A stretch of 44,420 nucleotides of DNA. It comes from Gemmatimonadota bacterium. Lineage in GTDB: Bacteria > Gemmatimonadota > Gemmatimonadetes > Gemmatimonadales > GWC2-71-9. Below the pieces are notes generated by a model, which was given only the letters and a program-made list of their open reading frames with translations, was not told where the DNA came from and ran no database searches. The translations under genes were made by a program, and so were the position numbers. The stretch lies in contig JANYAG010000341.1 of NCBI GenBank assembly GCA_025361465.1, forward strand, positions 1-44,420, written 5' to 3'. Every line of letters begins with the position of its first letter. Within the stretch, counting starts at the first letter, position 1. Positions 941-26,878 of the stretch are shown in pieces.

Positions 941-3235
941 TCATGCCCCGCCTGAGTGGGCGTCAGAGCCGCCCATCAGTGGCGCATTGGGGTTGCCCAT
1001 CACGTTCGCGGGCGCGGAGGCCATACTGGGGTTCGTGCCCAACATGGGTTGGAGACGCGGCGACAGGGACGGACCATCTTTCGGGTCGGGTGGAACGGCT
1101 GGCCCCGGAGGGGGCGCCATCTTCGTCGCTGACTGCTGCGCCAGCGCCTTCCAGCGTGCGTCGGCGGCCTGCACGACCGCTTCCTCGAGATCGTCACGGA
1201 GCAGGATTTCCGACTCCAGCACGTCCTGATGGATCGCTTCATTGTCCTGCCAGCGGATCGGCGGGATGGGCTTGTTGGCCTTGATCGCCTCGGCCACGCG
1301 GAAGGCACGGGCCTGCTGGGTGTCGTTCGGGGTCTGGAGGTTGCGCGTGTACGCGAAGGGCAGCCGCTTGCGGTACTCGTCGGCGGGCATCAACCCCTTC
1401 TCGAACATCTGGTCGAGCAGGAACAGCCGGAGCGCACGCGGCATCGGCGTCATCGTTTCCGGGTCGATCTCGACATCGGCGATTTCGTCGAAGTCCTCAC
1501 TGCTAATGGCGCGGGCCAAGTCGGGCCGCCCGTGCCCCATGATGCCCAGCAGGCGTGGGATGTCGTAGCCCCAGCGCATGAACTGGAGCGTGACCTTGCC
1601 CCACTCCACCATCGCCTCAGCCACGGCGTTGACCGGCTCGGCAAACACGCGCTCCAGTTGCTCGCGCAGGGCGAGGATGGCGCGGCCGGAGGTGTCGCCG
1701 GAATACTGGCCCCGGCTCGACGCGTTCCAACCACTCTTGTCCTCGAACAACTGACGCTCGGCCTGAATCAGTTCCTTGATGTCGGTGCCGACCGAGAACC
1801 CTTGCACGGGCAGGACGGACTCGCTGATCGGCCCGGTGCCGCGCACTTCAATCGCCGAGAGGGTGCCCGCCACCAGGGTGTCGTTCGAGATGGCACGCGG
1901 GCGGGTGAGGAAGCGACCCCCGGAGTTGAGCCGGACACTCTCGACCCACTTGGAAATCGCCGCGTTGACGCGAATCTGGTGCTCAACCCAGTCGTCCATC
2001 TCCGGGGCCGGGAAGAACGCCGGGTCGGCCGTGCCGTCAGGCACCCGCACCATCGGAACGACCCCCTGCACCAACGGAGACAGCACGACCAGCTCGCCAT
2101 CGACCGTGATGACGGTCAGCCCTTCGGGGAGATATTCACTGCGTTCGCAGTAGACCGTGAAGCGATCCACGGTGTCTTGCCCCTCCAAGGGATCACTGTC
2201 GCCGGGGCCGGTGGAGTTTCCTATCAGGCCCATCGCCACGTTCGCACGGCCTGTATTCACGGCTCTCCGGGTGCCCATCGCTCGCACGCCATGAGCCGTC
2301 ACGGCCTCGGCGGTCGAGATCGTCTCCTTGATGACCCAGTAGCTCGGCTTGATATTGGTGGTCGCATTGGCCGACACGACCACCTGTTCGATCTTGAGGA
2401 TGCGGGTGCGGACATCGCCCAGTCGCATCGTCTCGCCGGTCGTCATCTCGTACCACGGTCCCGCCTGATCATCCCAGTGGAGATGCCAGAAGGCTACACC
2501 GTCGGTCCCGTTGTGGAAGCGGGTTTCCTTGGTGATGCCACGCATCCCCTGTTGGTCGTACTGGTACTCCAGCGCGTACTGCTGCGCCTCGGCCTTTTTC
2601 ACCTTCTCCGAGTCCTGCGTGATCGGCTTCGTGCGGAAGCCCGGTCGCTGTTCGCTGACAATCTGCGCCCGCTGATCGAGCGCGGGCTTGATAAGATTGT
2701 GAACGGCGCGGGCCTGCTCGCGGGGCTTGGGCGGCTCGATCCACGGGCCGAACCCGTTGGCGCTCACCCACTGGACGCCCTTGTAGAACAGGCGATTCCG
2801 CTGGGTCAGGTGCATCCGACGCCGCTTGCCCGGTTGATGCCGGTCCCACAAATCTTCCGCCCAGGCCGCCCAGTCCTGCGGCTGGGGTTCGTCCTTGATC
2901 TGAGGGAACTGGTCGCCGTACAGGGCCGCCATCGCCGCCCGCTCACGGGCCTGCTGTTCCTCGGGGGACATCTCGGGTTCCGGGGCGTCGTTCGGCTCCT
3001 CGGGGGGCGCCGCCGGCTGCGTCGTCAAGGCGTCGTCGAGTGGTGCCGTCAAGGGCGGTGCGGGCGGCGGGGCCGTGACGCCCTCATGCTCACCGGGCAC
3101 CGGCTCCATCATCGGCATCGGGTCCGACTCGCCTACATGGGGGGTCATCGGGCCTTGATGCCCCTGCATCCCGCCGTCCACAATCGACTGGAGCAGATCA
3201 GGGGTGATACCGGGTGTAGCGGTGGGAGCGTTCAA
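941..3235 (-). CDS. portal protein
   Basis: 764-aa ORF with a TTG start inside a TTGA overlap with the upstream stop; downstream ATGs are also possible. Supported by its size, its position directly upstream of the scaffold and capsid genes, and a portal-like core segment (RNRLFYKGVQWVS...). Confidence 0.7.
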   Translation of the reverse strand: MNAPTATPGITPDLLQSIVDGGMQGHQGPMTPHVGESDPMPMMEPVPGEHEGVTAPPPAPPLTAPLDDALTTQPAAPPEEPNDAPEPEMSPEEQQARERAAMAALYGDQFPQIKDEPQPQDWAAWAEDLWDRHQPGKRRRMHLTQRNRLFYKGVQWVSANGFGPWIEPPKPREQARAVHNLIKPALDQRAQIVSEQRPGFRTKPITQDSEKVKKAEAQQYALEYQYDQQGMRGITKETRFHNGTDGVAFWHLHWDDQAGPWYEMTTGETMRLGDVRTRILKIEQVVVSANATTNIKPSYWVIKETISTAEAVTAHGVRAMGTRRAVNTGRANVAMGLIGNSTGPGDSDPLEGQDTVDRFTVYCERSEYLPEGLTVITVDGELVVLSPLVQGVVPMVRVPDGTADPAFFPAPEMDDWVEHQIRVNAAISKWVESVRLNSGGRFLTRPRAISNDTLVAGTLSAIEVRGTGPISESVLPVQGFSVGTDIKELIQAERQLFEDKSGWNASSRGQYSGDTSGRAILALREQLERVFAEPVNAVAEAMVEWGKVTLQFMRWGYDIPRLLGIMGHGRPDLARAISSEDFDEIADVEIDPETMTPMPRALRLFLLDQMFEKGLMPADEYRKRLPFAYTRNLQTPNDTQQARAFRVAEAIKANKPIPPIRWQDNEAIHQDVLESEILLRDDLEEAVVQAADARWKALAQQSATKMAPPPGPAVPPDPKDGPSLSPRLQPMLGTNPSMASAPANVMGNPNAPLMGGSDAHSGGA

Positions 3236-3537
3236 GCGTCATCCCCTTCGACTGTCGGTGCGTTTGCAGTGGGCAGGGTCGCCCGCACGGCGTCCCAAGA
3301 ATCGAACTTCTCGTAGGATTCCTCGATGGCCTTGAGTGCGCCGTCCCTCGCCCATCCGTCGCCCCAACTCTGTGCGTAGGCAATCAGGTCGCTTGGCATG
3401 GGTTCCCGTTTCACGTTGGTTCTCGGCAGTCCCTGGACCTCGGCGAGCGCGATCAGGCGATCCACGCGAGGGAGGGCGCGACTGACCAGCCACGACAGGA
3501 AACAGAGGACGAGGGCGACGGAGGCGAGAATGAACAT
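3232..3537 (-). CDS. small membrane protein (101 aa, N-terminal TM helix)
   Basis: ATG 3537 shares one base with the upstream stop (TGATG). The N-terminus MFILASVALVLCFLSWLV is hydrophobic. The longer 208-aa track ORF is an Arg/Gly-rich extension overlapping the previous gene. Confidence 0.55.
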   Translation of the reverse strand: MFILASVALVLCFLSWLVSRALPRVDRLIALAEVQGLPRTNVKREPMPSDLIAYAQSWGDGWARDGALKAIEESYEKFDSWDAVRATLPTANAPTVEGDDA

Positions 3538-8719: not shown

Positions 8720-8787
8720 TGGTGGGGCAGGGAATCGAACCCACGGACGCGGCATCTATTTGGCGGCGAACGACCAAGCTCCCCACG
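8720..8787 (-). ncRNA. tRNA-like element with an acceptor-type stem and a GGGTTCGATTCCC T-loop but no normal anticodon arm
   Basis: The minus-sense sequence is cgtgggg-...-gtgggTTCGATTccctg-ccccacc-a. It has a 6/7-bp outer stem and a canonical T-loop sequence on a weak 3-bp T stem. It starts 6 nt after the terL stop. Confidence 0.4.
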
Positions 8788-8793
8788 CTCTGT

Positions 8794-10347
8794 TCAGAAT
8801 CCGAAGGGCAACGTGCCGAAGTCGGAGGTTTCGTCATCAGGAACAGCCAGGAAGCGCGTCGGATCGACGTTATCCAGTGGCTCGGGTTCCGTTTCCGCGC
8901 CTTCCTCGTCCAAGATGAAGCACATGGCGATGGCGTCGGCGAAGTCGGGCGAATCCACGCCCCGCGCTTCCATTTCTTCCTTGCGTTCGACCTGAATCCG
9001 GCCGGTCGAGGCGATCTTGTACGTTGGGGCCGTCAGGTCGGTGCGGGTTTGCTGGATGTCGGGGGAGCCATCGTCGGGCGGGAGTCGGATCGTGTCGGCC
9101 TCGAAGCGTTCTCGGAGGTGCCACCAGTGTTCCGACCTGCGATTCCCGAACAGGGCGCGGTTTTGCGCCGTGCGGCCCGAGTGAAAGCCCAGGGCGGGAT
9201 AGTCCAGCTCCACCAAGCGGTCCAAGACGCCCGCGCCAACGCCCACTTCATCGACCACGATGATCGCCGGTTCGTACTGCGTGGCCGCCACGCGGATCAG
9301 GCCGACCGTTTCCATCGTCTCCAGGCCCGACCAGGACAACAGCGCCTCAATGGCATCGCCGCGCCGCACTGCGACCACCGTGCGGTTGTGCCCTTTCCGG
9401 GCCACGTCCACCCCGAAGATGCGGGGAACACTGCGGGCCTCGGCAGCGGCCAGTGCCTTCTGCCACCGCGCCACGTCCTGCGACCGCTCCACCTGGTCCA
9501 GTGAGATCACCGACGAACCGGCTGTCCGGGGGAACTCGCCCAGCACGCGGCAGGCATAGTACGGGGACCGCTCGCCCCAGCGCGTGCGAACCTGCTCGAC
9601 CCAGCGGCGCGTCACCGCACCAGGGATGATCTCTTTGCCCGTCACCACATTGGGGTGATCGAGGCAACTCATGTGAATCCGGTGCCAACTGCCGCGCCGG
9701 AACGACTCGTAGAACGTGCCGCTGAGTTCGGTCGGGTTGCCGACCATGACGATGCAGTTCTTCTCGCCCGTCGCCAGCGACCCTATGGCCTTGTGAATGT
9801 CCTCGCCCACCCCAGGCGCTTCATCCACGATGACCAAGAGGCGAGGATGGTGCTGACCCTGAAACGCCGTCGGGTTGTCTGTGGACATCCCCAGGGCGAA
9901 CCAATCACGCGATATGCGGAGTTCCGCATTGAGGAGTTCCCCCGGCAGCTTGACACGCGCCCGGCCGTGCAAGGATGCGATCTCGCGCCACAGGACTTTC
10001 TCGACCTGGTTCCAGGTGCTTGCCGTGGTGATGACCAGCCCGTGCCGGGCGTACAACCACCAGAGCGCGAGCAGGGCCATCGCAAACGTCTTGCCCTCGC
10101 CATGCCCGGAGCGAATCGTTATCATCGCCTCGGTGATGGCCGCTTCCAGAATCTCAACCTGCTTCGACCAGAGGCCCGAGATTTCGTTCGGGAGGTCGAT
10201 GAGCGGGATGCCCAGCACTTCGTTGCAGAACTCGACCGGGTTGTTCTCGTAGACACTGAACCGCTCAGGGTCGTCGGCGACGCGTTCCGCGTGGGCCAGG
10301 GCATCGCGGATCGCGGCTTCCAGTACCGCGATGTTCTGGGCGTCCAC
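8794..10347 (-). CDS. terL: terminase large subunit
   Basis: 517 aa with Walker A-like GHGEGKT and Walker B LLVIVDEA, then a C-terminal nuclease-type region (FGVDVARKGHNRTVVAV...). GTG start. Confidence 0.9.
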   Translation of the reverse strand: MDAQNIAVLEAAIRDALAHAERVADDPERFSVYENNPVEFCNEVLGIPLIDLPNEISGLWSKQVEILEAAITEAMITIRSGHGEGKTFAMALLALWWLYARHGLVITTASTWNQVEKVLWREIASLHGRARVKLPGELLNAELRISRDWFALGMSTDNPTAFQGQHHPRLLVIVDEAPGVGEDIHKAIGSLATGEKNCIVMVGNPTELSGTFYESFRRGSWHRIHMSCLDHPNVVTGKEIIPGAVTRRWVEQVRTRWGERSPYYACRVLGEFPRTAGSSVISLDQVERSQDVARWQKALAAAEARSVPRIFGVDVARKGHNRTVVAVRRGDAIEALLSWSGLETMETVGLIRVAATQYEPAIIVVDEVGVGAGVLDRLVELDYPALGFHSGRTAQNRALFGNRRSEHWWHLRERFEADTIRLPPDDGSPDIQQTRTDLTAPTYKIASTGRIQVERKEEMEARGVDSPDFADAIAMCFILDEEGAETEPEPLDNVDPTRFLAVPDDETSDFGTLPFGF

Positions 10348-11916: not shown

Positions 11917-12395
11917 GCTCGCGTGACCGTGACCTTCGCCGGATGGCCGCCCACCAACTCCACCGTCAGGGTGTCACCCCGGTAGACCTCGAACGTCAGG
12001 CGGCCGACCTCGACACAGGTGACATAGGGCGGGCCGAGCGGCGGCTTGACCACGGGTTGCCCACTGGGTTGCTTCTCCAGCGCGTGCAGCGCCATGAGGT
12101 GCCGGAGGACCGGGGCGGGCACCATGTCGTGCAGGGCATTGTACCGCCTGAACCCCAGGTCGCCGTCGTCCCATATTGACACCGTGGCGACGTGCTTCCT
12201 CGCCTCGAAGTGGCGGGCTTCCCACCACGCGATGTCGCGGGTCGGGGGCGTCCAGTTCGTCGGCCAATCGGTCGGCAGCGGCAACGTCGGCATAGTTCTC
12301 CGGTGTGGAAGGTCGGGGTTGGGCGCCGCATCCGACGGGACACGCTCAGACTTGGCAGACTCCCAGCGGGCACGACGCCCCCCGACCAGATTCAT
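11913..12395 (-). CDS. hypothetical protein (160 aa; an alternative start at ATG 12293 gives 126 aa)
   Basis: ATG 12395 lies about 18 nt downstream of a predicted promoter. ATG 12293 has a better SD (ccacaccGGAGAact). Confidence 0.5.
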   Translation of the reverse strand: MNLVGGRRARWESAKSERVPSDAAPNPDLPHRRTMPTLPLPTDWPTNWTPPTRDIAWWEARHFEARKHVATVSIWDDGDLGFRRYNALHDMVPAPVLRHLMALHALEKQPSGQPVVKPPLGPPYVTCVEVGRLTFEVYRGDTLTVELVGGHPAKVTVTRA

Positions 12396-12419
12396 CCTAC
12401 TGAACTATTTACTACAATG

Positions 12420-12447
12420 AACTTAAGGGTGAACCTGGAGAAGTCAA
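12420..12447 (-). promoter_or_regulatory. sigma70-like promoter, TTGACT-N16-TAAGTT
   Basis: On the minus strand the -35 TTGACT is at 12447-12442 and the -10 TAAGTT at 12425-12420, upstream of the gene starting at 12395. Confidence 0.4.
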
Positions 12448-12533
12448 GGGGGTGGGAACGCATATGAAAGGAGGGCGACCAGGGAACCGATTATGGGAAA
12501 ATGATAGGAGCAAAAGAGGAGGGTATTCGTACA

Positions 12534-12570
12534 GGGGGGCGGGGTCGAACCGGGTCATCCCCCACCCCCC
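12534..12570 (-). other. GC-rich 11-bp hairpin with GGTTCGA in its loop, a minihelix-like element
   Basis: The stem pairs GGGGGG(C)GGGG with CCCC(A)CCCCCC. The internal mismatch becomes a G-U pair only in the minus-sense RNA. It lies in the gap downstream of terS. Confidence 0.4.
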
Positions 12571-12610
12571 GGCCGGGCGCGGCGCACGTTCCTACCCTTT
12601 CTGCCCCGTC

Positions 12611-12634
12611 CGTGTCGCCTGTCGTGTCGCCTGT
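12611..12634. repeat. 2 x 12-nt perfect tandem repeat CGTGTCGCCTGT (minus sense ACAGGCGACACG)
   Basis: Read directly from the sequence. It abuts two TT(T/A)GCAGTG motifs at 12635-12654. Confidence 0.9.
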
Positions 12635-12716
12635 CACTGCTAACCCACTGCAAAAGGCAGGCAGGACGTGGCTTACAGCACGTTCACCCCAGCATCTGTA
12701 ATGCCGTTCTATCCTG

Positions 12717-13352
12717 TTATGTACTGCTAGTACTGCGCTCCGGGTCGCCGGGTACCACCTCCCAGTCGGATTCCGGCAGCGTCGCAAGAGCAAGAGAGGA
12801 AACCTCCCCTTCCTTCCTTCCTCCCGTTGCGCCTCCTGTCTCCTGTCCCTGTCCTGTCTTGCTCCCCAATGCCCCGCCAGCGGCCGCCACGGGGTCTAGG
12901 GATCGTTCGGACTGTCGCAGTGATGCAGTCACTACCCCCATGATGTCTGGGCGCTCCTGAGCGATCCAGCGGCGGACCGATGGATCACTTAGCGCGGCCA
13001 GCAGCGAGCGGGATAGTGCCTCAGCGGTTGCCCAAGCTTTGCTGTTGTCACTGCTGCCACCCTCAGCAGTAGAGACGCCTCCATACTTGGCCAGCGTGTC
13101 GAGTGCTGCCACCCGATCACGGGCCGATGGCGTGAACACAGTGGTTCCCTTGGGGCCGGTGGTGTACGTCTCAATCGTCCCGTCGGCGATGGCCTCCAGG
13201 ACGTGAATCCGACTAAAGAACGAGTCTTTGCATCGAGCCCGGATGATATCGGCGGTCAGGTTCGGCGCCGTCAACTGGCGCGGCAACGTGGCGACCGCTT
13301 TGCCGCCTTTGCGAGTCGGCTTGTCTTTGCCAGTGAAACGGGCGTGCGGCAT
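12717..13352 (-). CDS. terS: putative terminase small subunit
   Basis: 211 aa from ATG 13352. It has a basic N-terminus and a segment ...PSARDRVAALDTLAKYGG... that resembles the conserved helix of small terminases. It is the first gene of the leftward packaging operon and sits next to a repeat array. Confidence 0.5.
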   Translation of the reverse strand: MPHARFTGKDKPTRKGGKAVATLPRQLTAPNLTADIIRARCKDSFFSRIHVLEAIADGTIETYTTGPKGTTVFTPSARDRVAALDTLAKYGGVSTAEGGSSDNSKAWATAEALSRSLLAALSDPSVRRWIAQERPDIMGVVTASLRQSERSLDPVAAAGGALGSKTGQGQETGGATGGRKEGEVSSLALATLPESDWEVVPGDPERSTSST

Positions 13353-13368
13353 AGGTTCCAGTGATTTG

Positions 13369-13459
13369 AGTATGGAGAGTATGGAGAGTATGGTTGGATG
13401 TTGAGGTGGGTGATGAATCAATACCTCATACTGATCATACTACCCATAGTCACCATACT
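13369..13459. repeat. 9-bp-phased hexamer array: 3 x AGTATG (13369, 13378, 13387) facing 4 x CATACT/CATAGT (13427, 13436, 13445, 13454)
   Basis: Read directly. The two blocks are inverted relative to each other around about 13410, immediately upstream of the terS start. Confidence 0.85.
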
Positions 13460-13766
13460 CACGAGAGTAGGGGCAGGATTCCGGGGGACCAGCAACAGCA
13501 ACAGCAACTACGCTTCCCAGCGGTCGCTGCGCTCCCTCGGGGTCGTCGGGAACCGCACCCGACTCCCTGCGGCGGCTTGTGGTAGCTGCTCGGGTTGACC
13601 GGGGTGATCTATGGACTGGAGTGATGTATTGAAGGGGGGTTATAGGGGGGAACTTATAATGGTCGGAAACGCTTGTCAAGGGGTCTCCGAGTCATATGCA
13701 TAAGTCATTGCGGCGGCACCACTTGGAACATTACAAAAACTGTGGATAAGATACATTGGGGGTTGG

Positions 13767-13825
13767 ACGTTCCAAAACGTTCCACATTGCGGGCTAAGCC
13801 GTTCACTGTACTGACTTGTTCACTG
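13767..13825 (+). promoter_or_regulatory. two pairs of direct repeats upstream of and abutting the -35: ACGTTCCA x2 and GTTCACTG x2
   Basis: ACGTTCCA sits at 13767 and 13777 (10-bp spacing). GTTCACTG sits at 13801 and 13818 (17-bp spacing), and the second copy ends 4 nt before the -35 TTGACA. Confidence 0.4.
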
Positions 13826-13829
13826 GGGC

Positions 13830-13858
13830 TTGACAGATTGGGGCGCGGGTGCTAATAT
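13830..13858 (+). promoter_or_regulatory. near-consensus sigma70 promoter, TTGACA-N17-TAATAT, for the rightward operon
   Basis: TTGACA is at 13830-13835 and TAATAT at 13853-13858, with an exact 17-nt spacer. All downstream genes to 18424 are on the + strand. Confidence 0.7.
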
Positions 13859-13970
13859 CCCTGCACAACGTAGGGTAGGGCAGCACAGCCAGCTCATTGA
13901 TAACCGGGATGGATTCGCGGACGGCGCAAGCAAGGCGACGGCAACCATTCCCCTCACAATCGTCCAGGTG

Positions 13971-14047
13971 AGAAGCCTTAGCGACGATAGACCCCACCCG
14001 GCAAGATGTTGGCTTGCGTGGTTCCGGTTCGATTCCGGCGGCTTGGA
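13971..14047 (+). ncRNA. tRNA-like element E1 in the operon leader
   Basis: 5-bp stem with a 7-nt loop (gcaag-ATGTTGG-cttgc, 14001-14017), a T arm (tccgg-TTCGATT-ccggc) and a 5/7-bp outer stem (aagcc/ggctt). There is no D stem. Confidence 0.5.
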
Positions 14048-14087
14048 TTTGCAGCACACCACACAACCTCAACCGGAGTACCCGACA

Positions 14088-14279
14088 ATGACCAAGCACA
14101 TCACGATTACCATCGACACCGACAATGCCGCGTTTATGGACGGGAACGAGGGGCCGGAAGTCGCCCGTATCCTGCACCGGCTGGCGACGGTCTGCGAGGA
14201 CGGCGTCGGGTGGTTTCGGCTTGCCCTGCGCGACAGCAACGGAAACACGGTTGGCTTTGTGGACATTGAAGAGCGCTAA
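14088..14279 (+). CDS. hypothetical protein (63 aa)
   Basis: ATG 14088 follows a CA tract and GGAG. The track start at 13830 is the TTG of the promoter -35. Confidence 0.6.
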   Translation: MTKHITITIDTDNAAFMDGNEGPEVARILHRLATVCEDGVGWFRLALRDSNGNTVGFVDIEER

Positions 14280-14299
14280 CTGGCCGACCCGGATTGGAT

Positions 14300-14329
14300 A
14301 CGTCAGAAGCCCGCTCACGTTTCTGACGT
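14300..14329 (+). other. perfect 9-bp stem hairpin (ACGTCAGAA / TTCTGACGT, 12-nt loop)
   Basis: Read directly. It starts 20 nt after the stop of the 63-aa gene and has no U tract. Confidence 0.6.
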
Positions 14330-14359
14330 TCCAGCCAGAGACACCGAGCAGTAGACTAA

Positions 14360-14398
14360 GGCCGTCCGGACAGGTGGGGTTCAACTCCCCACCGGCCA
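14360..14398 (+). ncRNA. tRNA-like minihelix E2
   Basis: ggccg-tccggacag-gtgggg-TTCAACT-ccccac-cggcc-a, followed directly by TTGCAGG and a CA tract. Confidence 0.55.
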
Positions 14399-14443
14399 TT
14401 GCAGGACACCACACCACACTCCCCAACACCAGTGAGGCGCAAC

Positions 14444-15787
14444 GTGGACACGGTTACGGTTACGGAACCCGTCGCAGTGGCAGACAAGAAAGCGGCACGC
14501 GGCAAGTCATTCGGCAGTGGGTTCAATCCCGGCCGGTATCGCCCCACCAAGCGCACCGAACTGGCACCACAGGAAGAGGCCGCCGCTTTCACCCGACACG
14601 CGGATTGCGGCGGCCTCTTTAAACAGAGCGATGGCCGATACAGTGTCTATGTCCAGTGTGACAAATGCGGCGGATTCATCGACCCCAACAAGTCCACCGA
14701 CAGCTACACGGAAGATGGGATCCTCTACACCCGGCAGGACGAAATGGCGGCCCCGGTGGTGGTGACAGGCGCCAAGGCAAAGCCAGTTTTTGGTGTCAAG
14801 CCAGTGCCGGTTAGCAGTGGCGACACCGACGCCCTAGCGACCATCCGGGCGCTGTTGGGTGGTGCGGTGGATGAAGCGCAAGTTCGGAAGGTCGCGGCTG
14901 AGGTCGTTGCGGACTCCTTCGGCAGTATCGCGGAAGCCGTGCGGGAGGCGTTCGACAAATCAGGCGCTCTGCGGAAGGTCATCGAAATCCGGCAGCAAGA
15001 CGGGCCAGTGGTGACGCTGGAGGAGCATACGCACACCTCGTTCGAGTCTGTCCTTAAGACGGCGGGCTACCGTCGCCCGTTGCCCGGCACCGACCGCACC
15101 ACCCGGTTCAACATCATGTTGGTCGGTCCCAAGGGATGCGGTAAGACGCACCTAGCCCATCAGGTCGCCAAGGCGCTTGGTTTGCGGTACGGGGCGCTGT
15201 CGTGCGGCGCCGGGACCACTGACGGTGAGATTATCGGCCGCGTGATTCCGAACCTCACTGGCGGCACTGCAAACCTGCAAACGTCGCTGTTTCTTGATTT
15301 CTTCGAGCACGGTGGGGTGTTCCTGTTGGATGAACTGGACGCCCTGAATCCGACGACGGCGCTACGGCTGAACATGGCGCTGGAAAATGGCCGGATGTTC
15401 GATGCACTGGGACGCGAAGTCCAGCGCCACGCTGACTTTTTGGTGTTGGCTGGCTTGAATACGTGGGGGCATGGCGCTTCCCGTGAGTACTGCGGCCGGG
15501 AAATGCAGGACTCGGCGCTGCTGGATCGGTTCGCTGGCGCTGAGTTTGATTTTGGCTATGACGAAAAGCTCGAAGCATTTCTCTGCCCGGATGCCGGGCT
15601 GTTGGCAAAGCTTTGGGGGATGCGGAAGCGGGCAGTGGAGTTGAAGATGGTCCGGCGCATCGTCTCGACCCGGCGCATTGTGGCGGCCTATGAACTGGTG
15701 GCCGGGATGGGGATGACGCATAAGGAAGCCATTGATCGAGTCACGGCCGGATGGCCGGAGGCCGACAAGACGGCCGTGTTGCGGTAA
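14444..15787 (+). CDS. AAA+ ATPase (MoxR/CobS-like, AAA_5-type) with an N-terminal zinc ribbon
   Basis: GTG 14444 lies 6 nt after GAGG. Walker A GPKGCGKT, Walker B VFLLDELD, and sensor/arginine region ...DSALLDRFAG. The N-terminus has H..C...C..C (HADCGG...QCDKCGG). Confidence 0.8.
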   Translation: MDTVTVTEPVAVADKKAARGKSFGSGFNPGRYRPTKRTELAPQEEAAAFTRHADCGGLFKQSDGRYSVYVQCDKCGGFIDPNKSTDSYTEDGILYTRQDEMAAPVVVTGAKAKPVFGVKPVPVSSGDTDALATIRALLGGAVDEAQVRKVAAEVVADSFGSIAEAVREAFDKSGALRKVIEIRQQDGPVVTLEEHTHTSFESVLKTAGYRRPLPGTDRTTRFNIMLVGPKGCGKTHLAHQVAKALGLRYGALSCGAGTTDGEIIGRVIPNLTGGTANLQTSLFLDFFEHGGVFLLDELDALNPTTALRLNMALENGRMFDALGREVQRHADFLVLAGLNTWGHGASREYCGREMQDSALLDRFAGAEFDFGYDEKLEAFLCPDAGLLAKLWGMRKRAVELKMVRRIVSTRRIVAAYELVAGMGMTHKEAIDRVTAGWPEADKTAVLR

Positions 15788-15793
15788 GAGGTC

Positions 15794-15834
15794 GCCAGTC
15801 GCGGAGGTGGCCGGGTTCAACTCCCGGCGCTGGC
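15794..15834 (+). ncRNA. tRNA-like minihelix E3
   Basis: gccag(t)cg-cggaggtgg-ccggg-TTCAACT-cccgg-cgctggc. It begins 6 nt after the TAA of the ATPase gene and is followed by TTGCACC and a CA tract. Confidence 0.55.
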
Positions 15835-15884
15835 TTGCACCACACCACACTACACCAAGGGGGTTTGCAGTGATTACGGAACAC

Positions 15885-16787
15885 ATGAGCGAGTCACGGG
15901 GGGTCCATTACGGCGAGTGCGATGCCGTGGACCTGTGCGGCCTGTTGGATGGGGTGAAACGTCACCCGGTCAACGCCCAAATAGGGATCGCTAGGGGCGA
16001 CAATATGCCAGGCGGGCCGAAATGGTACGGCGGCATCACGAGCACGTCGCAGGTCGCTGACCTGTTTCAAGAGGGATGGGCTGAGGGGGCGGCCAAGGTC
16101 CAGCGGTTGTCGGAACAGGTGCAAGCGCCGACACAGACAGCCACCGTCGTCCGTCGCCGCAGCGTCTACAGTGACCAAGGTGACGAACTGGACGGATGGC
16201 GGGCGATGGCAGGTGACTGGGATGTGGCATGGCAGCGCCAGAGCGCACAAGAGCGCATCGGCCCGCGTGTCGTGAGTATCGCCGGGACGTGGGGCGGAAG
16301 CTATAATCGGTCGGCTGACGAGCTGTTCTGGCAGGGGGCGCAAATGATTGTCGCTGCCGACCTACTGGAACAGGCCGGATATGCGGTGGAGGTGGTGGCG
16401 CTCCTGTCTACCTCGATCTACGCGACTCACTTCAAAATCAAGGCCGGGAACGGGAAGATGATTAATCCATCCGCGAAATCGCTTTGGCGCATCACGGTCA
16501 AGCGCAGTGACGAACCGCTCCGGCCGGACCAAGTGGCTGCGATTTTCTGTCACGCTGGGACGTTCCGCACGGCGGGTTTTGAGGCTGTCTGTACCGCCCC
16601 ATTCGATGTTGGGCATGGCCTCGGGGCGCACGCGACCGCTGAGGCGTGCTACGCACAAGCCAAGGGGGATAAGGTCATCCCGGCGGCACCTGACTTCATC
16701 TTGCCGGATGCCTACACCCCACAGCAAGCGGCGGCCAATATCGCCGGGTTAATCGCCAAGCTTGAAGCGGCAGCGGGGGCAGCATGA
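15885..16787 (+). CDS. hypothetical protein, partner of the AAA+ ATPase (300 aa; an alternative GTG start at 15870)
   Basis: Intact ORF immediately downstream of the ATPase. I recognise no domain in it. Confidence 0.55.
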   Translation: MSESRGVHYGECDAVDLCGLLDGVKRHPVNAQIGIARGDNMPGGPKWYGGITSTSQVADLFQEGWAEGAAKVQRLSEQVQAPTQTATVVRRRSVYSDQGDELDGWRAMAGDWDVAWQRQSAQERIGPRVVSIAGTWGGSYNRSADELFWQGAQMIVAADLLEQAGYAVEVVALLSTSIYATHFKIKAGNGKMINPSAKSLWRITVKRSDEPLRPDQVAAIFCHAGTFRTAGFEAVCTAPFDVGHGLGAHATAEACYAQAKGDKVIPAAPDFILPDAYTPQQAAANIAGLIAKLEAAAGAA

Positions 16788-16903
16788 ACCCCCGCGCTGC
16801 GAAGTTTCAAGAGGCCGTCAACGCGGCGGCCTCACTCCTTGGGTGGCTCTTGTTCTTCTACGGGGTCGCCGTCCTCGCCTTCATCCTGACACGGTGGACA
16901 TGA
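16784..16903 (+). CDS. 39-aa single-TM mini-protein (not in the ORF track)
   Basis: ATGA overlaps at both ends (16784-16787 and 16900-16903). It encodes MNPRAAKFQEAVNAAASLLGWLLFFYGVAVLAFILTRWT. Confidence 0.45.
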   Translation: MNPRAAKFQEAVNAAASLLGWLLFFYGVAVLAFILTRWT

Positions 16904-17094
16904 TAACACGTCAACGACTCGCCCGCTTGCGACGGTGCCTTAAGGCGTCGTCGGCCCTGACGCGACAGATCGACGACCTCATCCACGACCTCCGGCACCG
17001 CCGGGTACTGCCAGAGGGGGCAGCCGACGCCCGACAGGCGGCACTGGAAGCGTACACCCTGACATGCGAACTGGCCGCACTGGGGCAGGATTGA
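16900..17094 (+). CDS. hypothetical helical protein (64 aa)
   Basis: ATG 16900 lies in an ATGA overlap. The track start at 16762 would overlap the previous genes. Confidence 0.5.
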   Translation: MITRQRLARLRRCLKASSALTRQIDDLIHDLRHRRVLPEGAADARQAALEAYTLTCELAALGQD

Positions 17095-17110
17095 CCTTTC
17101 CCAGGAGCAC

Positions 17111-17171
17111 GCCGGACGGGATTTGCAGTGACCGGGAAGGGCTTGCTGGGGGTTCGACTCCCTCACCCGGC
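17111..17171 (+). ncRNA. tRNA-like minihelix E4
   Basis: T arm ggggg-TTCGACT-ccctc with one G-T pair, enclosed by ccggg/cccgg (17132-17170) or by gccgg/ccggc (17111-17171). It contains TTTGCAGTGA at 17122-17131. Confidence 0.5.
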
Positions 17172-17222
17172 ATAGTCTCACCGCTGGACCCGACACACAC
17201 CACACCCACCAGAGAGGTTACC

Positions 17223-17612
17223 ATGTTTTCCACTGTCCAGATCGACGTTGACCGCGACACCAAGTCCATGAACGTCACTTATACCCGACACACGGGCACC
17301 CCGACCCTCGCCACGATGCAGGCCGCTGTTGGCGGCTCCATCGAGCGCGGGTTCGAGTTGGCGTCCCCGACCCGGCCGGGTATCACGCTCGACTACTGGG
17401 TGAACGAGGACGGGCTGGCTGTCACAGATAGTCCCGTGATGCGCTACCGTAGCCCTGACCTCGACGCCGGGTATGGGGTGGGCGTAATCACACTGGCAGG
17501 AAATGGCATCTATTCCGCCAGTAACGAGGACGGCGAGACAGTGGCGATGAGGGCCGACGAGATCAAGTACGTCTACAAGATCAAGATGTATCTGGCGGGT
17601 TTCACGCACTGA
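17223..17612 (+). CDS. DUF3846-like protein (129 aa)
   Basis: ATG 17223 follows a CA tract and AGAGAGG. The pattern ...LATMQAAVGGSIE...WVNEDGL...ITLAGNG...NEDGETV... resembles that phage domain family. Confidence 0.5.
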   Translation: MFSTVQIDVDRDTKSMNVTYTRHTGTPTLATMQAAVGGSIERGFELASPTRPGITLDYWVNEDGLAVTDSPVMRYRSPDLDAGYGVGVITLAGNGIYSASNEDGETVAMRADEIKYVYKIKMYLAGFTH

Positions 17613-17617
17613 CCGTC

Positions 17618-17656
17618 TGCCCCTTGGAAGTTGCCGGTTCGACTCCGGCAGGGGCA
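17618..17656 (+). ncRNA. tRNA-like minihelix E5 (the cleanest example)
   Basis: tgcccc-ttggaagt-tgccgg-TTCGACT-ccggca-ggggca. It begins 5 nt after the TGA and is followed by a 30-nt CA tract (17661-17690). Confidence 0.6.
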
Positions 17657-17703
17657 CTGTACCACACACCACACACTCACCCACACCACAGGACTCACTG
17701 CAA

Positions 17704-18066
17704 ATGCGATCACAGCGACCACCAGAGGAACCGCCCGAGGACTACGACCCGACCCTTGCCTATGGGCAGTGTACGGTCAACCTGTACCGCAAGCGGGAAC
17801 TAGAACTGTTTGAGGAACGCAAAGCGGCTCGCGCCGTCAAGCTGCCGCCCAGTGGCTCCCACGTTGCCGACCTGTCCGTGCGGGCTGGGGGACGGTACGT
17901 CCTGCTCACCGCGATAACGGAACGGGCATGGAACTGGATGCAGAACAACCTCGACCCCGAAGTGCAGGTCAACGGTGAGGAGCGCGGCATCTACATCGAG
18001 CGGCGCCACCTTGGGCCGCTCCTGTTTTTTGCAGACAAGTTCGCCCTGAATGTCGTCCCAGTATGA
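17704..18066 (+). CDS. hypothetical protein (120 aa)
   Basis: Intact ORF with an ATG start. Confidence 0.6.
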   Translation: MRSQRPPEEPPEDYDPTLAYGQCTVNLYRKRELELFEERKAARAVKLPPSGSHVADLSVRAGGRYVLLTAITERAWNWMQNNLDPEVQVNGEERGIYIERRHLGPLLFFADKFALNVVPV

Positions 18067-18239
18067 CCGTCTCCACTGCGGTAGCACTCATGCTGGTGGG
18101 GACGGTGGTGCTCCACTGGCTGCACCACGAAACCATCCGCGCCAAGGCGCTGATGAGGATGCGGGAAGCCGTTGAACGGAAAGCGTATCTGGCCCGACTC
18201 GCACGACACACGCCACACCGACCGGAGGGCAGCCAATGA
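18063..18239 (+). CDS. 58-aa single-TM mini-protein (not in the ORF track)
   Basis: ATGA overlaps at both ends. It encodes MTVSTAVALMLVGTVVLHWL... followed by a basic tail. Confidence 0.45.
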   Translation: MTVSTAVALMLVGTVVLHWLHHETIRAKALMRMREAVERKAYLARLARHTPHRPEGSQ

Positions 18240-18424
18240 CCGACCTTGCCAAGAAACCGCTCACCGCGCAGCAGCTCCGGCGATGGCGCACCGCCAAGGG
18301 GATAACCCAGGCCGCCGCCGCTGAGTGGTGGGGCTGTACCGAAGTAAGCTGGTGGCGCTGGGAGGCGGAAGCCGTACCCGTGCCGCTGACACTCACCAAG
18401 GTGATCCTTCGGGAAACAGAGTGA
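18236..18424 (+). CDS. small XRE/Cro-like helix-turn-helix protein (62 aa)
   Basis: LTAQQLRRWRTAKGITQAAAAEWWGCTEVSWWRWE matches the HTH_XRE pattern. Confidence 0.6.
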   Translation: MTDLAKKPLTAQQLRRWRTAKGITQAAAAEWWGCTEVSWWRWEAEAVPVPLTLTKVILRETE

Positions 18425-18433
18425 CGCACAACA

Positions 18434-18477
18434 GAAAGCCCCTCGCGCTTGGACAGGCGGGGGGCTTTCGTGTTTGT
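18434..18477. terminator. hairpin terminator between convergent operons
   Basis: 9-bp stem GAAAGCCCC / GGGGCTTTC followed by GTGTTTGT. It lies between the + gene ending at 18424 and the minus gene ending at 18487. Confidence 0.6.
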
Positions 18478-18486
18478 AGTGGGCGG

Positions 18487-18861
18487 CTACTCGTAGGCTG
18501 CCCGATCCTCCAGGAGTCGCAGGTACACCCATAGCGGCATCACCGCCAGATCGCTGCGGCGTCTGCCCGGTGCGGCGTTCCGGCGAATCAGGGCGACAGG
18601 AAGCTCACACCCACCGGCGACCATTTCGGCTTGCCGCACCGCGTCGTAGATGGGCGGGTTGGCGCCGACCTTGCACTGGTACTGGAACCTGCCCGTCGCC
18701 CCGCTGTCGATGTCGCCGCTGTTGCCTTCCCGTGTTTCGATCAGCACGCGCTTGTGCTCGATGCCGGTGGCGTCGGTCAGCATCTTGCAGCAATCCCGCT
18801 CGAACTGGTGCCCCTTGGCACGCGACAGGCGGCCGACCTGTTGTGGGGTGCGCTTCTTCAC
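18487..18861 (-). CDS. PD-(D/E)xK nuclease, Holliday-junction-resolvase-like (124 aa from GTG 18861)
   Basis: GHQFER...GDID...QCK motif order. GTG follows AAGGGGGG. The longer track ORF overlaps the upstream gene and is Arg-rich. Confidence 0.5.
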   Translation of the reverse strand: MKKRTPQQVGRLSRAKGHQFERDCCKMLTDATGIEHKRVLIETREGNSGDIDSGATGRFQYQCKVGANPPIYDAVRQAEMVAGGCELPVALIRRNAAPGRRRSDLAVMPLWVYLRLLEDRAAYE

Positions 18862-18973
18862 TTGCCCCCCTTGGCCGCAGGCTTCGCGGCCAAAGGGTTC
18901 AGGCACAGTGGACAGCAGCCCTTGTCGGCGTGCATACACTCCCGCCCCGGCGTCTGGTAGATCACTGGCTTGC

Positions 18974-19369
18974 TCACTGGAGGCGACCCGCTTCGAGGTC
19001 GAGGATGACGGCCGCGTTCGCCAAGTTCCAGTTACAGCAGGCGCCACGGGCAGAGGTCCAGTCTGACGGCGCCGCCGCGTACTTCCCGCCGGTACGGGAC
19101 GCAAAGTAGCGGTACTCGACCGAGTAGCCACTCAGCATACTCGGGTTTGGGACGCGCCGGAACTCGATCCCGTCCAGACCGCGATGGATGGTGGCCGGGT
19201 CCGGGTACATCGTGATCGCCCGGTCCTTGATCTCGCAGTGTGTGGCGTAGCTGACGGTCCCGCCCGTGCAGCTTGCTAGGGCGTACGCGCCATCAACGAA
19301 CGCCTCGCGCTGGGCGTCGGTCGTGGGGTCTTTGAGGATGATCGTGTCGCGCATCGTGTTCATGTTCAT
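18974..19369 (-). CDS. hypothetical protein (131 aa)
   Basis: ATG 19369 lies in an ATGA overlap and is preceded by a CA tract and GGAG. Confidence 0.55.
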   Translation of the reverse strand: MNMNTMRDTIILKDPTTDAQREAFVDGAYALASCTGGTVSYATHCEIKDRAITMYPDPATIHRGLDGIEFRRVPNPSMLSGYSVEYRYFASRTGGKYAAAPSDWTSARGACCNWNLANAAVILDLEAGRLQ

Positions 19370-22644: not shown

Positions 22645-22718
22645 GGCTGGGTAGTTCAGATGGTTAGAACGCCACACTCATAATGTGGAAGTCGCGGGTT
22701 CGAGTCCCGCCCCAGCTA
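22645..22718 (+). tRNA. tRNA with anticodon CAT (Met, or Ile2 if lysidine-modified)
   Basis: Full 74-nt cloverleaf: acceptor ggctggg/cccagct, D arm gttc/gaac, anticodon arm ccaca-CTCATAA-tgtgg (CAT at 22679-22681), T arm gcggg-TTCGAGT-cccgc, discriminator A. CCA is not encoded. Confidence 0.9.
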
Positions 22719-25654: not shown

Positions 25655-25687
25655 GCGTCCCCTGGTGTGTGTGGTGTGTGTTCACTG

Positions 25688-26878
25688 CTAACCGATCTTC
25701 TGCTGTGCCTCGGCCATCGAGGCGACCTTCTCCCAGTGATCTCGTTCAATGTCGGTCGGCTTGTAGACGCCGTACACGCGGGCGACCATCTGGATTGACG
25801 AGTGCCCGAGCTGGCTGGCGACCACCTGATAGGGGGTGCCTGCCTTAATGGCGCGAACGGCCCAGTAATGTCGCGCATCGTGCAGCCGGTAGTCCTTGAG
25901 CTGCAAGGCGACGATGGCCTTGTGGTGCGCCTTCGTCAGACTGTGCCGGTCCATCTTCGGGAACAGTCGAGCGGCGGGCAGCAGTGATTGGATGTGCCGC
26001 AGCAGCAGCGGCCACGCCCAGTCGGCCACTCGCACCACCCGGTCGCGGGTCGCGGTCTTGGTGCCCCGCGCCCTGATCTCCCGGCGCTCCACGTCCACGT
26101 CACTGCGAACGAGGCCGACCAGCACGCTTGCCTCGATCCCCGTGCCGTAGGCCAGTGCGACGGCCGTAGCAAACGGTTCCCGGCACGCGCCGATCACCTT
26201 CATCGCGGTTGCCGTGTCCAAGTGCAAGTCCCGTGGCGGCGCGGCGACCGGCCGCTCAAGGTCATCCTTGGCGAAGTTCCGCTCCAAGATGCCCCGCGTC
26301 TTGAGGAAGGCACAGAAACTCGACAGGGACGCCGCCGCCTTCCGTCGCGTCGAGGGGTTGAGGTCGAGGCAGTCCAGCCACTGCTGGCAGACCGGGAGTG
26401 TCAGCTTGGTTGAGGGAAACCGGATGCCCTCGGGGATCAGGCGGCGAACGTGCCGCTTGTACTCCATCGCAATCTTGACGCCCTGCCCCAGTCGTACGTC
26501 AGCCCATTCCCTCACCAGTGGGTCGAGGTCGATGACCTGGGCGGCCTGTCGAATCAGGGCGAGGTTGCCGTGCTGGAACGCCTTGTAGGCGTTCTCCCAC
26601 GGAATCGCCCCCGACTGGAGCAGGGCCAGTGTCTCGAACTGGTGATCGTCGGCCAGCCGGTCGAGCATCGAGGCCAGCTCTTGCGCCCGCTTCTTGTTGG
26701 CCGTTTGCAAGCTGACGCGAACCCACCGTCCATCGGGTTCACGCCAGCCGGAGTGCCAGTTCTTGCGGCCCTTCTGTTGGTATAGCACGGCATCCTCCGT
26801 GGTGCGTGGGACTGGTGACTGCACAGAACTATACACCACGATGGATGCCGGGGTCAAGCCCCTGTCGGTCTGGTTCAC
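25688..26878 (-). CDS. int: tyrosine recombinase / phage integrase
   Basis: 396 aa. The C-terminal catalytic region has ...RLHDARHYW...LGHSSIQMVARVYGVY (H-x-x-R, H, Y). GTG start in a GTGA overlap with recT. Confidence 0.9.
   Translation of the reverse strand: MNQTDRGLTPASIVVYSSVQSPVPRTTEDAVLYQQKGRKNWHSGWREPDGRWVRVSLQTANKKRAQELASMLDRLADDHQFETLALLQSGAIPWENAYKAFQHGNLALIRQAAQVIDLDPLVREWADVRLGQGVKIAMEYKRHVRRLIPEGIRFPSTKLTLPVCQQWLDCLDLNPSTRRKAAASLSSFCAFLKTRGILERNFAKDDLERPVAAPPRDLHLDTATAMKVIGACREPFATAVALAYGTGIEASVLVGLVRSDVDVERREIRARGTKTATRDRVVRVADWAWPLLLRHIQSLLPAARLFPKMDRHSLTKAHHKAIVALQLKDYRLHDARHYWAVRAIKAGTPYQVVASQLGHSSIQMVARVYGVYKPTDIERDHWEKVASMAEAQQKIG

Follow-up and report, generated by a model that had tools for sequence, protein, structure and literature searches.

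In animal mitochondria polycistronic RNA is cut by RNase P and RNase Z at tRNA-shaped spacers, and in the mascRNA and MEN-beta modules of MALAT1 and NEAT1 RNase P makes the upstream 3′ end, RNase Z cuts and CCA is added. The principle that tRNA or tRNA-like spacers steer RNase P/Z processing is thus already known, both in organelles and in MALAT1/NEAT1. Between the early genes of phage T7 lie RNase III processing hairpins, and polycistronic mRNAs of Escherichia coli and Salmonella (the his operon) undergo RNase P/RNase E processing. Our subject is a 44,420-nucleotide stretch of DNA (the window: contig JANYAG010000341.1, assigned to a Gemmatimonadota bacterium; 44.4 kb, about 64% G+C), which is a temperate tailed phage or prophage, and in particular a set of RNA elements in it. 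Five of these, E1 to E5, stand at the gapped gene junctions of one rightward operon, and four of the five (E2-E5) have the form of the acceptor/T-arm half of a tRNA; a sixth, E6, lies in the leftward late operon. What is new is the bacterial-virus setting, the minimal form that retains the tRNA elbow, and the repeated syntax of element, leader and Shine-Dalgarno sequence (SD).

Plant mitochondrial t-elements are non-canonical tRNA-like structures in mRNA precursors which carry the T-arm motif GGTTCRANYCC; their boundaries are mRNA 3′ or 5′ ends ascribed to RNase P and RNase Z, the freed elements bear non-templated C/A additions, and at other genes this role falls to genuine tRNAs (Forner et al. 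2007, PMC1920247). E1-E6 all carry this same motif outside canonical tRNAs and, like t-elements, they lie beside the ends of coding regions within a longer transcript. In contrast, t-elements are organellar, the examples being non-canonical cloverleaves of about 74 nt where the phage minihelices are of 40 nt; they show no repeated element, leader and SD syntax; and their processing has been mapped, whereas the phage case is known from sequence alone. The animal mitochondrial spacers are functional tRNAs, but those found here, in a bacterial virus, only mimic tRNAs: they have no anticodon arm and do not decode. As a tRNA-like module within a longer transcript mascRNA resembles the phage design, and E3 is a weak match to its Rfam model (mascRNA-menRNA, RF01684; 18.9 bits, E=6), far below the gathering threshold of 42.5 bits and so not a member; mascRNA differs also in its cloverleaf-like fold and its eukaryotic, nuclear setting. 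The RNase P model hairpins of McClain/Altman and Kirsebom, which bacterial RNase P RNA cuts efficiently and accurately with or without the protein (PMC11143913), have the same architecture as the phage elements, but they carry a 3′ RCCA, whereas the phage elements are without CCA and are embedded in mRNA. T7 and the his operon (whose mRNA processing is cited in PMC11143913) share with the proposed phage case structured intercistronic signals, a cut by a host RNase and segments with their own stabilities; they differ in that RNase III acts on long irregular duplexes, and in that the known bacterial RNase P sites in mRNA are not recognisable T-loop minihelices.

Minihelices at the gapped junctions of a phage operon

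The genes of the window lie nearly all on the minus strand, the exception being the one rightward operon, whose parts are listed here together with E6.

13830-13858 (+): sigma-70-like promoter, TTGACA-N17-TAATAT
13973-14044 (+): E1, in the 5′ untranslated region (UTR); 72 nt, tRNA-sized degenerate element, a weak member
14088-14279 (+): 63-aa open reading frame (ORF) g1, operon gene 1, ATG start
14360-14398 (+): E2, GGCCG-TCCGGACAG-GTGGGG-TTCAACT-CCCCAC-CGGCC; 5+6 (or 4+7) base pairs, an 11-bp stack
14444-15787 (+): AAA_5/MoxR-like ATPase, GTG start, TAA stop
15794-15834 (+): E3, GCCAGT-CGCGGAGGTG-GCCGGG-TTCAACT-CCCGGC-GCTGGC; 6+6, a 12-bp stack with one U-G pair
15870-16787 (+): DUF7192 protein, GTG start
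16784-16903 and 16900-17094 (+): two small overlapping ORFs
17132-17170 (+): E4, CCGGG-AAGGGCTTGC-TGGGGG-TTCGACT-CCCTCA-CCCGG; 5+6, an 11-bp stack with one G-U pair
17223-17612 (+): DUF3846 protein, ATG start, TGA stop at 17610-17612
17618-17656 (+): E5, TGCCCC-TTGGAAGT-TGCCGG-TTCGACT-CCGGCA-GGGGCA; 6+6, a 12-bp stack
17704-18424 (+): three further operon genes, the first starting at ATG 17704
8721-8786 (minus): E6, 66 nt, in the leftward late operon, 7 nt past the large-terminase TGA (8796-8794)

A first-pass annotation of this DNA had proposed that every gapped junction downstream of the promoter carries such an element, and by position it was right: the gaps are the 5′ UTR and the junctions from g1 to the ATPase gene, from the ATPase gene to the DUF7192 gene, from 16900-17094 to the DUF3846 gene and from the latter to 17704, all five are occupied, and the count is correct because all other junctions overlap. 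The promoter is the sole sigma-70-like match in 12300-19300, also as proposed. Within the operon the elements begin 5-80 nt past stop codons (E3 at 6 nt past the ATPase TAA, E5 at 5 nt past the DUF3846 TGA) and finish 35-52 nt before starts. The sequences of E2-E5 bear out the outer stem, connector, inner stem and 7-nt T-loop that had been described; the E2 connector is 9 nt long, with A14398 at the discriminator position, and E4 does have the competing alternative outer stem, 17111-17115/17166-17170, that had been noticed.

E1 and E6 are weaker, decayed, tRNA-sized members of the same kind. E1 pairs AAGCC with GGCTT as its outer stem and has the T-arm CCGG-TTCGATT-CCGG at 14024-14038; the anticodon-like arm of 5 bp and 7 nt claimed at 14001-14017 (loop ATGTTGG) is real, but the element is less well formed than described, with a T-stem of merely 4 bp, a 1-nt offset before the 5-bp outer closure, a 46-nt connector and a 9-bp stack, and it is not the minimum free energy (MFE) structure. 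E6 likewise has a 9-bp stack, with the outer stem GTGGGG/CCCCAC and the T-loop GGG-TTCGATT-CCC on a decayed T-stem. The reading of E1 as a decayed tRNA-Asn, for which the GTT in the 14006-14012 loop would be the anticodon, was rejected as unsupported: there is no D-arm and no match to a tRNA model.

The T-loop core GTTCRAYTC occurs nine times in the window against 1.45 expected; the occurrences at 3299, 37072 and 43379 lie inside coding regions and were discarded as chance matches. We searched the 44 kb, on both strands, with a descriptor that calls for a T-loop, 4 bp or more of inner stem, a 3-16-nt connector and an immediately closing outer stem of 5 bp or more, and this found E2-E5 and nothing else, while dinucleotide-shuffled windows gave 0.09 matches, and 0.02 at 11 bp or more against the four observed. 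All four are in the mRNA sense and within the 694 nt of intergenic gaps of one operon. Moreover the U-G pair of E3 and the G-U pair of E4 are mismatches on the opposite strand and fit the plus-sense RNA only, which the first-pass annotation had pointed out for E4. E2-E5 are true acceptor/T-arm minihelices, with chance excluded, and that they copy the tRNA acceptor/T-arm is strongly supported.

Folded alone with RNAfold, the minihelix is the MFE structure of E2 (z -2.07), E3 (z -1.96) and E5 (z -2.48), and not of E1 or of E4, for which the alternative outer stem is taken; the folding check proposed earlier thus came out well for three elements and not for the other two. Within the full junctions the E3 and E5 minihelices persist and E2 and E4 retain the T-arm only.

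None of the elements is a tRNA or tmRNA. ARAGORN called in the window a single tRNA-Met(CAT) at 22645-22718 (+), which is a genuine phage tRNA (Rfam 72.3 bits; CCA not encoded, TCGACC next), with no tmRNA and none of E1-E6; Rfam at its gathering threshold matched this tRNA-Met alone, and at E<=10 gave no tRNA match at E1-E6. At permissive thresholds E5 matches only a model resembling an antisense tRNA, and E1 and E6 give bare T-arm matches. With R1, a covariance model that we built from ten elements (see below), E2, a training sequence, scores 35.1 bits and E4 30.7 bits, and E1 again matches only as a T-arm. No element ends in CCA (the 3′ flanks of E2-E5 are ATTG, TTGC, CATA and CTGT), so the NCCA end of a tmRNA acceptor piece is lacking. 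A terminator scan of 12300-19300 found none at the elements, and no T-run follows any of them.

A weak T-loop-like element, GGGGGG..CCCGG TTCGACC CCG..CCCCCC and then TGTAC, was seen at 12533-12571 (minus), scoring 14.9 bits with R1; its place is in the divergent control region, where a possible leftward promoter, with TTGACT at about 12455, lies downstream of it. There is also a separate 9-bp hairpin, ACGTCAGAA..TTCTGACGT, at 14297-14331 (+), upstream of E2 in the same 164-nt junction.

Leaders between the elements and the start codons

Each element is followed by a leader that runs to the next start codon.

14045-14087 (+): leader after E1; TTGCAG, CACACCACAC at 14055-14064, SD GGAG, ATG 14088; C+A 70%, G 19%
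14399-14443 (+): leader after E2; TTGCAG, CA tract 14405-14419, CACACCACAC at 14410-14419, SD GAGG, GTG 14444
15835-15869 (+): leader after E3; TTGCAC, CACACCACAC at 15841-15850, SD AAGGGGG, GTG 15870
17171-17222 (+): leader after E4; CACACCACAC at 17196-17205, SD AGAGAGG, ATG 17223
17657-17703 (+): leader after E5; CTGTAC, CA tract 17661-17691, CACACCACAC at 17665-17674, ATG 17704; C+A 81%, G 9%

The claim that TTGCA(G/C) and/or a CA tract, then an SD and the start, follow each element proves to be sharper than it was stated, as the exact sequence CACACCACAC stands once after each of E1-E5 and has one further copy in the whole window, at 25669-25678 (minus), in the 33-nt junction between the integrase and patatin genes. 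The leaders are 63-81% C+A and 9-20% G overall, and compared with shuffled sequence the whole junctions are no better folded, three of the four being less well folded. These C/A leaders are probably the unstructured ribosome-loading leaders of high-GC phages. C/A-rich, G-poor leaders were likewise seen before genes in L001, L173, L164, L206 and L214 (L numbers denote loci that we fetched).

On the plus strand within 13800-17750 TTGCA(G/C) has five copies (14049, 14399, 15835, 15865 and 17123), all in gaps, and it usually comes directly after an element, with CTGTAC in its place at 17657. In relatives, variants of it come after the hairpins or tRNA-like elements: TTGCAG and TTGGCAGTACAG in L417, and CTGCAGTAC in L418. 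This motif could be a second processing signal. TTGCAG as the -35 box of internal promoters was considered and rejected, there being no -10 box at the proper spacing.

The same design in unrelated phages

We took a census over all the fetched loci (about 3.5 Mb), from which anything overlapping a tRNA or tmRNA call was removed. In L133, from IMG/VR, one copy (GAGCG / AAAGGTGCCGGAT / GGGGAGG / TTCGATT / CCTCCCC / CGCTC) stands 7 nt past the ATPase TAG and another (GAGGCG / ACGGTGCA / GGGGGG / TTCGACT / CCTCCC / CGCCTC) overlaps the DUF7192 TGA; after each of them come ACCAACCACCGAAAGGAGA and a start codon. The R1 model found three elements outside its training set: one in L136, right past the ATPase TGA (28.1 bits), one in L173, 6 nt past a TAG and followed by ACAACCACACACAAC..GGAGG..ATG (33.4 bits), and a further copy in L214 (32.8 bits). 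The last locus is a Tsukamurella soli prophage, with terminase and SPP1-type portal genes, whose divergent small-gene operon has five copies in 2.5 kb; these start 7-32 nt past a stop codon (three of them at 7-11 nt), finish 33-56 nt before the next start and are of 6+6 bp, with one exception that has a bulge. Two pattern scans of IMG/VR brought an element in L276 (TGA + 8 nt, 6+6 bp, with an SD 3 nt downstream) and a dozen more, some of them in AT-rich phages. One family of the elements is carried by crAss-like phages, and in GenBank OR575929 it occupies an unannotated gap between hypothetical genes. The intercistronic copies are all in sense orientation, most of them 5-12 nt past a stop codon and all of them 18-56 nt before a start. 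The pattern of a T-loop with CACACCACAC gave mostly genuine tRNAs in viral and genome collections, and was useful for L164, L173, L170, L206 and L214 only.

The ten copies used for R1 all share the loop-closing G-C (the G53-C61 equivalent) and the loop letters T-T-C-R-A, but 11 of the 13 stem pairs are changed on both sides; as these copies were picked by a pairing descriptor, this shows that the stems differ and does not independently prove the structure. The 96 distinct non-tRNA descriptor matches have stacks of 8 bp (28 matches), 9 (28), 10 (4), 11 (10), 12 (22), 13 (3) and 17 (1). This is a bimodal distribution, in which a chance background at the minimum allowed length is separate from a peak at 12 bp, the length of the 7+5 stack of tRNA. 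The search did not impose a 12-bp rule, and the commonest split is 6+6. Of the 36 elements with 11 bp or more, 31 have GG in the connector, where windows of equal length drawn from these loci would give an expected 14.4; the GG stands usually 2-4 nt past the outer stem and often within TGGT(A), like G18-G19 of the D-loop. This suggests, from the sequences, that the connector GG docks on the T-loop and so rebuilds the tRNA elbow.

Several kinds of match were put aside. Those inside the variable arms of tRNA-Leu, tRNA-Ser and similar tRNAs were excluded by ARAGORN, and those inside tRNA arrays in L186, L215 and L281 were set apart, their context being other than intercistronic. A look-alike, AGGTG..TCGGG TTCGATT CCCGA CACCT CCACCA, in L259 and seven other loci had the appearance of a minihelix with CCA but was excluded as the acceptor piece of a phage-encoded permuted tmRNA. 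Such a permuted two-piece tmRNA, with the tag peptide ANDERFALAA, is found at 4701-5083 of L259 and also in L261, L264, L266, L277, L279 and L289, which are IMG/VR contigs. Minihelix-like truncated tRNAs stand among genuine ones in L186 (3160-4920, a Planctomycetia metagenome-assembled genome or MAG), L215 (4160-4290, an Acidimicrobiia MAG) and L281 (2870-3015), and the L186 array also has the repeated unit GGGCACCGTGCGCAGCATGGTCG.

Relatives of the operon and of E6

The closest relative of the window is L001, a syntenic Logan contig of 43 kb whose ATPase is 54% and whose portal is 66% identical. This contig comes from SRR30872625, and the ATPase gene of the window itself is present on Logan contigs from SRR23617164. 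L417 (terminase 55% identical) has plain hairpins and one T-arm-only hairpin, GGGGAGG-TTCGACT-CCTCCCC. In both loci the plain hairpins are GC stems of 8-10 bp in the same slot, followed by a (C)TTGCAG/CA leader. About 70 loci have a relative of the ATPase, and among them a T-loop element after the ATPase gene is found only in the window, L133 and L136. The conserved slot is one of hairpin, unstructured C/A leader and SD, of which the tRNA-like form is one filling; that it is so generic follows from the plain hairpins which L001 and L417 carry there.

Where the tRNA-like form is present in related junctions, its stems vary and its shape is kept, as had been claimed for the elements within the window. 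L133a and L136, at the same junction from ATPase to DUF7192, have similar connectors and entirely different stems. In L418, whose terminase is 72% identical, the counterpart of E6 differs from it by compensatory changes in the outer stem (GTGGGG/CCCCAC in E6, GGCGGG/CCCGCC in L418); the L418 ortholog is the better formed, as follows.

2938-3009 of L418: E6 ortholog, 72 nt, 7+5 bp; not called by ARAGORN

A T-arm was also seen in L417 at about 12000-12060, at the place corresponding to E6, and is not called by ARAGORN either. Genuine tRNAs stand in the same slot, directly before the CA leader and start codon, in L001 (tRNA-Met), L164 (tRNA-Met) and L173 (tRNA-Ala), and the elements of L170 and L418, with E1 and E6, are tRNA-sized intermediates which ARAGORN does not call. 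The tRNA-Met of L001 was noted to be at another place than that of the window, in the leftward operon.

Discussion

We give an even chance to the reading, made by analogy with the systems described above, that the elements are mimics of the tRNA elbow and acceptor which serve as RNase P/RNase Z processing signals. The operon would then be transcribed from 13830-13858 as one polycistronic RNA, in which the elements copy the part that tRNA maturation enzymes read: a coaxial stack of 11-12 bp, a T-loop closed by G-C, and a GG connector. Host RNase P, measuring from the elbow along the stack, would cut at the 5′ edge of the outer stem, a few nucleotides past the upstream stop codon, and a 3′ tRNA-processing activity would cut just past the outer stem; this is presumably RNase Z, because neither the elements nor the phage tRNA-Met encode CCA. 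The message would thereby be divided into mRNA segments, each free to have a stability of its own and, if downstream of a cut, beginning with an unstructured C/A-rich leader, SD and start codon, and the freed minihelix RNA of about 40 nt could receive CCA. We infer each of these enzymatic steps, and their effect on expression, from the form and the placement of the elements.

Published work on the enzymes is consistent with such a scheme. RNase P measures a fixed distance from the elbow of the T-stem-loop/acceptor stack to its cut site; the elbow is likewise gripped by RNase Z and by the CCA-adding enzyme, and for RNase Z a CCA acts as the anti-determinant (PMC4919913), so that the absence of CCA from the elements counts in favour of their processing. 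RNase P efficiently cuts hairpins made up only of acceptor stem, T-stem and T-loop, and its known targets include the M3 and C4 RNAs of phages as well as a polycistronic mRNA (PMC11143913). The phage elements have the features of a minimal RNase P hairpin, namely a single-stranded 5′ leader, a helix of roughly 12 bp and a 7-nt T-loop.

Several points weigh on the other side. The stacks of E2 and E4 are of 11 bp, one short of the 12 of tRNA, and in context the outer stems of these two are not what the fold prefers; E1 and E6 are decayed; and all of the elements are without the 3′ RCCA that pairs with the P15 loop of bacterial RNase P RNA. A 3′ RCCA aids RNase P cleavage and is not essential with the holoenzyme. 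A cut by RNase P would moreover strip from the upstream cistron its 3′ protective hairpin, a step whose usefulness is not obvious. Finally, L001 shares the junction syntax but has plain GC hairpins and ACCACACACACC-type leaders with no T-loop, and, L133 and L136 apart, the other relatives among the roughly 70 loci with an ATPase relative have tight junctions or plain hairpins. Because L001 and most of these loci use other junctions, the tRNA-like form is dispensable for the operon design. Of the tRNA punctuation put forward in the first-pass annotation, the mimicry stands on strong support, given by the recurrence in unrelated phages, the 12-bp peak, the GG of the connector, the replaced stems and the real tRNAs in the slot, but the notion that it is obligatory is weakened by L001 and L417.

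The plain hairpins lead directly to the main alternative, in which the elements are end-protecting or insulating hairpins, filling a generic slot of hairpin and unstructured leader, and are not excised by tRNA enzymes. They would be 3′ stabilisers of the upstream segment after some other nuclease cuts the TTGCAG/CA sequence, or 5′ stabilisers of the downstream one, and the T-loop would be just a stable cap, or would recruit a protective tRNA-binding protein. The L001 and L417 junctions, with the same leader after their plain GC hairpins, agree with this, as do L099, L107, L087 and L088, which have plain hairpins after the ATPase gene; the confinement of the operon’s five TTGCA[GC] copies to gaps could mark a separate cleavage site, and the leaders are less structured than shuffled sequence. 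We nevertheless consider it unlikely, as it leaves unexplained the invariant T-loop letters and G-C closure, the peak of stacks at 12 bp with its dip at 10, the D-loop-like GG of the connector and the genuine tRNAs in the slot. The plain hairpins of the relatives, moreover, use unrelated loops (TAACCC, TACACT, TCACAC), so that there is no general pressure for a special loop. Those genuine tRNAs raise in turn the question of descent: the elements might be decaying tRNA genes or tRNA-derived selfish repeats, functionless and tolerated in gaps. There is indeed a continuum of size from real tRNAs (L001, L164, L173) through degenerate elements (E1, E6, L170, L418) to 40-nt minihelices; minihelices occur inside tRNA arrays too (L186, L215, L281), their distribution across relatives is sporadic, and the five copies of L214 are alike, even in the sequence that precedes them. 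Random decay should break pairing, yet 12-bp stacks are kept through full replacement of the stems between orthologs; the D and anticodon arms are cleanly gone, leaving an 8-13-nt connector with GG; the intercistronic copies are all in sense and set between stop and start; and the flanks show neither target-site duplications nor terminal repeats. Nor are the elements fragments of a phage attachment site (attP), because each has a 5′ strand to pair with, the integrase gene (25688-26878) is 8-12 kb away, and there are several copies of them. Decayed tRNA genes and attP remnants had been dismissed on first inspection, and the recurrence, the 12-bp peak, the GG connector, the replaced stems and the real tRNAs in the slot argue the same way; we regard functionless descent as improbable.

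Two further readings, like that of tRNA decay, are less likely. The minihelices, released or embedded, might be tRNA decoys or ligands that soak up or recruit a tRNA-binding factor, candidates being host defence toxins aimed at the acceptor end of tRNA, enzymes that modify the T-arm, the CCA-adding enzyme and EF-Tu. What the elements preserve is exactly the acceptor/T-arm/elbow surface by which many proteins recognise tRNA, and with several copies in each early operon they would be plentiful from the onset of infection. A decoy, however, would not need a fixed position between stop codon and SD, the lack of an anticodon arm means that the best-known anticodon nucleases could not be its targets, and no tRNA-related enzyme and no recognisable defence or anti-defence gene lies beside the elements; decoy action as their main role is distinctly improbable. 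Terminators without a U-tract have been proposed for Actinobacteria, and GC-rich hairpins directly past stop codons in high-GC genomes might similarly be factor-independent, ‘I-shaped’ terminators or attenuators that set a polarity gradient along the operon. This we hold to be very improbable indeed, since the terminator scan found none at the elements and no T-run, a T-loop, a 5′-side bulge and a 12-bp rule are all unneeded for termination, and essential-looking genes lie downstream of each element with no new promoters.

Returning to the elements as processing signals, a wider proposal, which we put forward tentatively and at somewhat less than even odds, is that many tailed phages, from high-GC temperate ones to the crAss-like phages of the gut, use ‘elbow-retaining mini-tRNAs’ as a general punctuation, each of them made of a 12-bp acceptor/T stack, a T-loop and a D-loop-like GG connector. 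Mitochondrial tRNA punctuation would then have its counterpart in bacterial viruses, whose polycistronic mRNAs would be handed to the host’s RNase P, RNase Z and CCA-adding enzymes; the freed, CCA-tailed minihelices could, in a second role, decoy host factors that bind tRNA. Should tRNA-maturation enzymes cut the elements, there would be a phage processing code, missed by gene callers and tRNA finders alike, which would fix the boundaries, stabilities and 5′ leaders of single phage mRNAs. With it, tRNA punctuation and t-elements would reach beyond organelles into bacterial viruses, and there would be natural, minimal, elbow-containing substrates of RNase P and RNase Z, as well as compact parts with which to split synthetic operons. 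The census hints that many uncultivated phages have such elements, among them the human-gut crAss-like phages, in which they fall in intergenic DNA left unannotated. In the open-access full-text literature that we searched, we found no prior description of tRNA-like minihelices punctuating phage operons, which leaves their absence from the literature unproven and is consistent with the first-pass view that they were undescribed.

Other features of the window

The remaining genes fit a temperate tailed phage, the following being those with positions.

941-3169 (minus): P22-like portal
8794-10347 (minus): large terminase, within the packaging module
25688-26878 (minus): tyrosine integrase

For 8794-10347 the Pfam match is weak (AAA_30/helicase-like); since JGI gives the homologues the name of large terminase subunit and the ORF is part of the packaging module, it is to be read as a terminase. 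The window also codes for a DnaB-like helicase, RecT, a YqaJ exonuclease and a patatin-like protein.

At the DNA level neither the operon nor the Tsukamurella region matched anything among the GenBank phages, and a protein search against the same phages gave distant ATPase relatives only, at about 30% identity, which is uninformative. Single-protein scans of IMG/VR with the ATPase and the DUF7192 protein found no relatives, whereas an alignment query brought them. A homologue of the ATPase is known from Thermogutta (Planctomycetota), and the relatives of the portal and terminase are almost all metagenomic sequences. The tRNA-Met of the window, on the plus strand, sits among minus-strand genes and is followed by a hairpin, GACCAGGG..CCCTGGTC.

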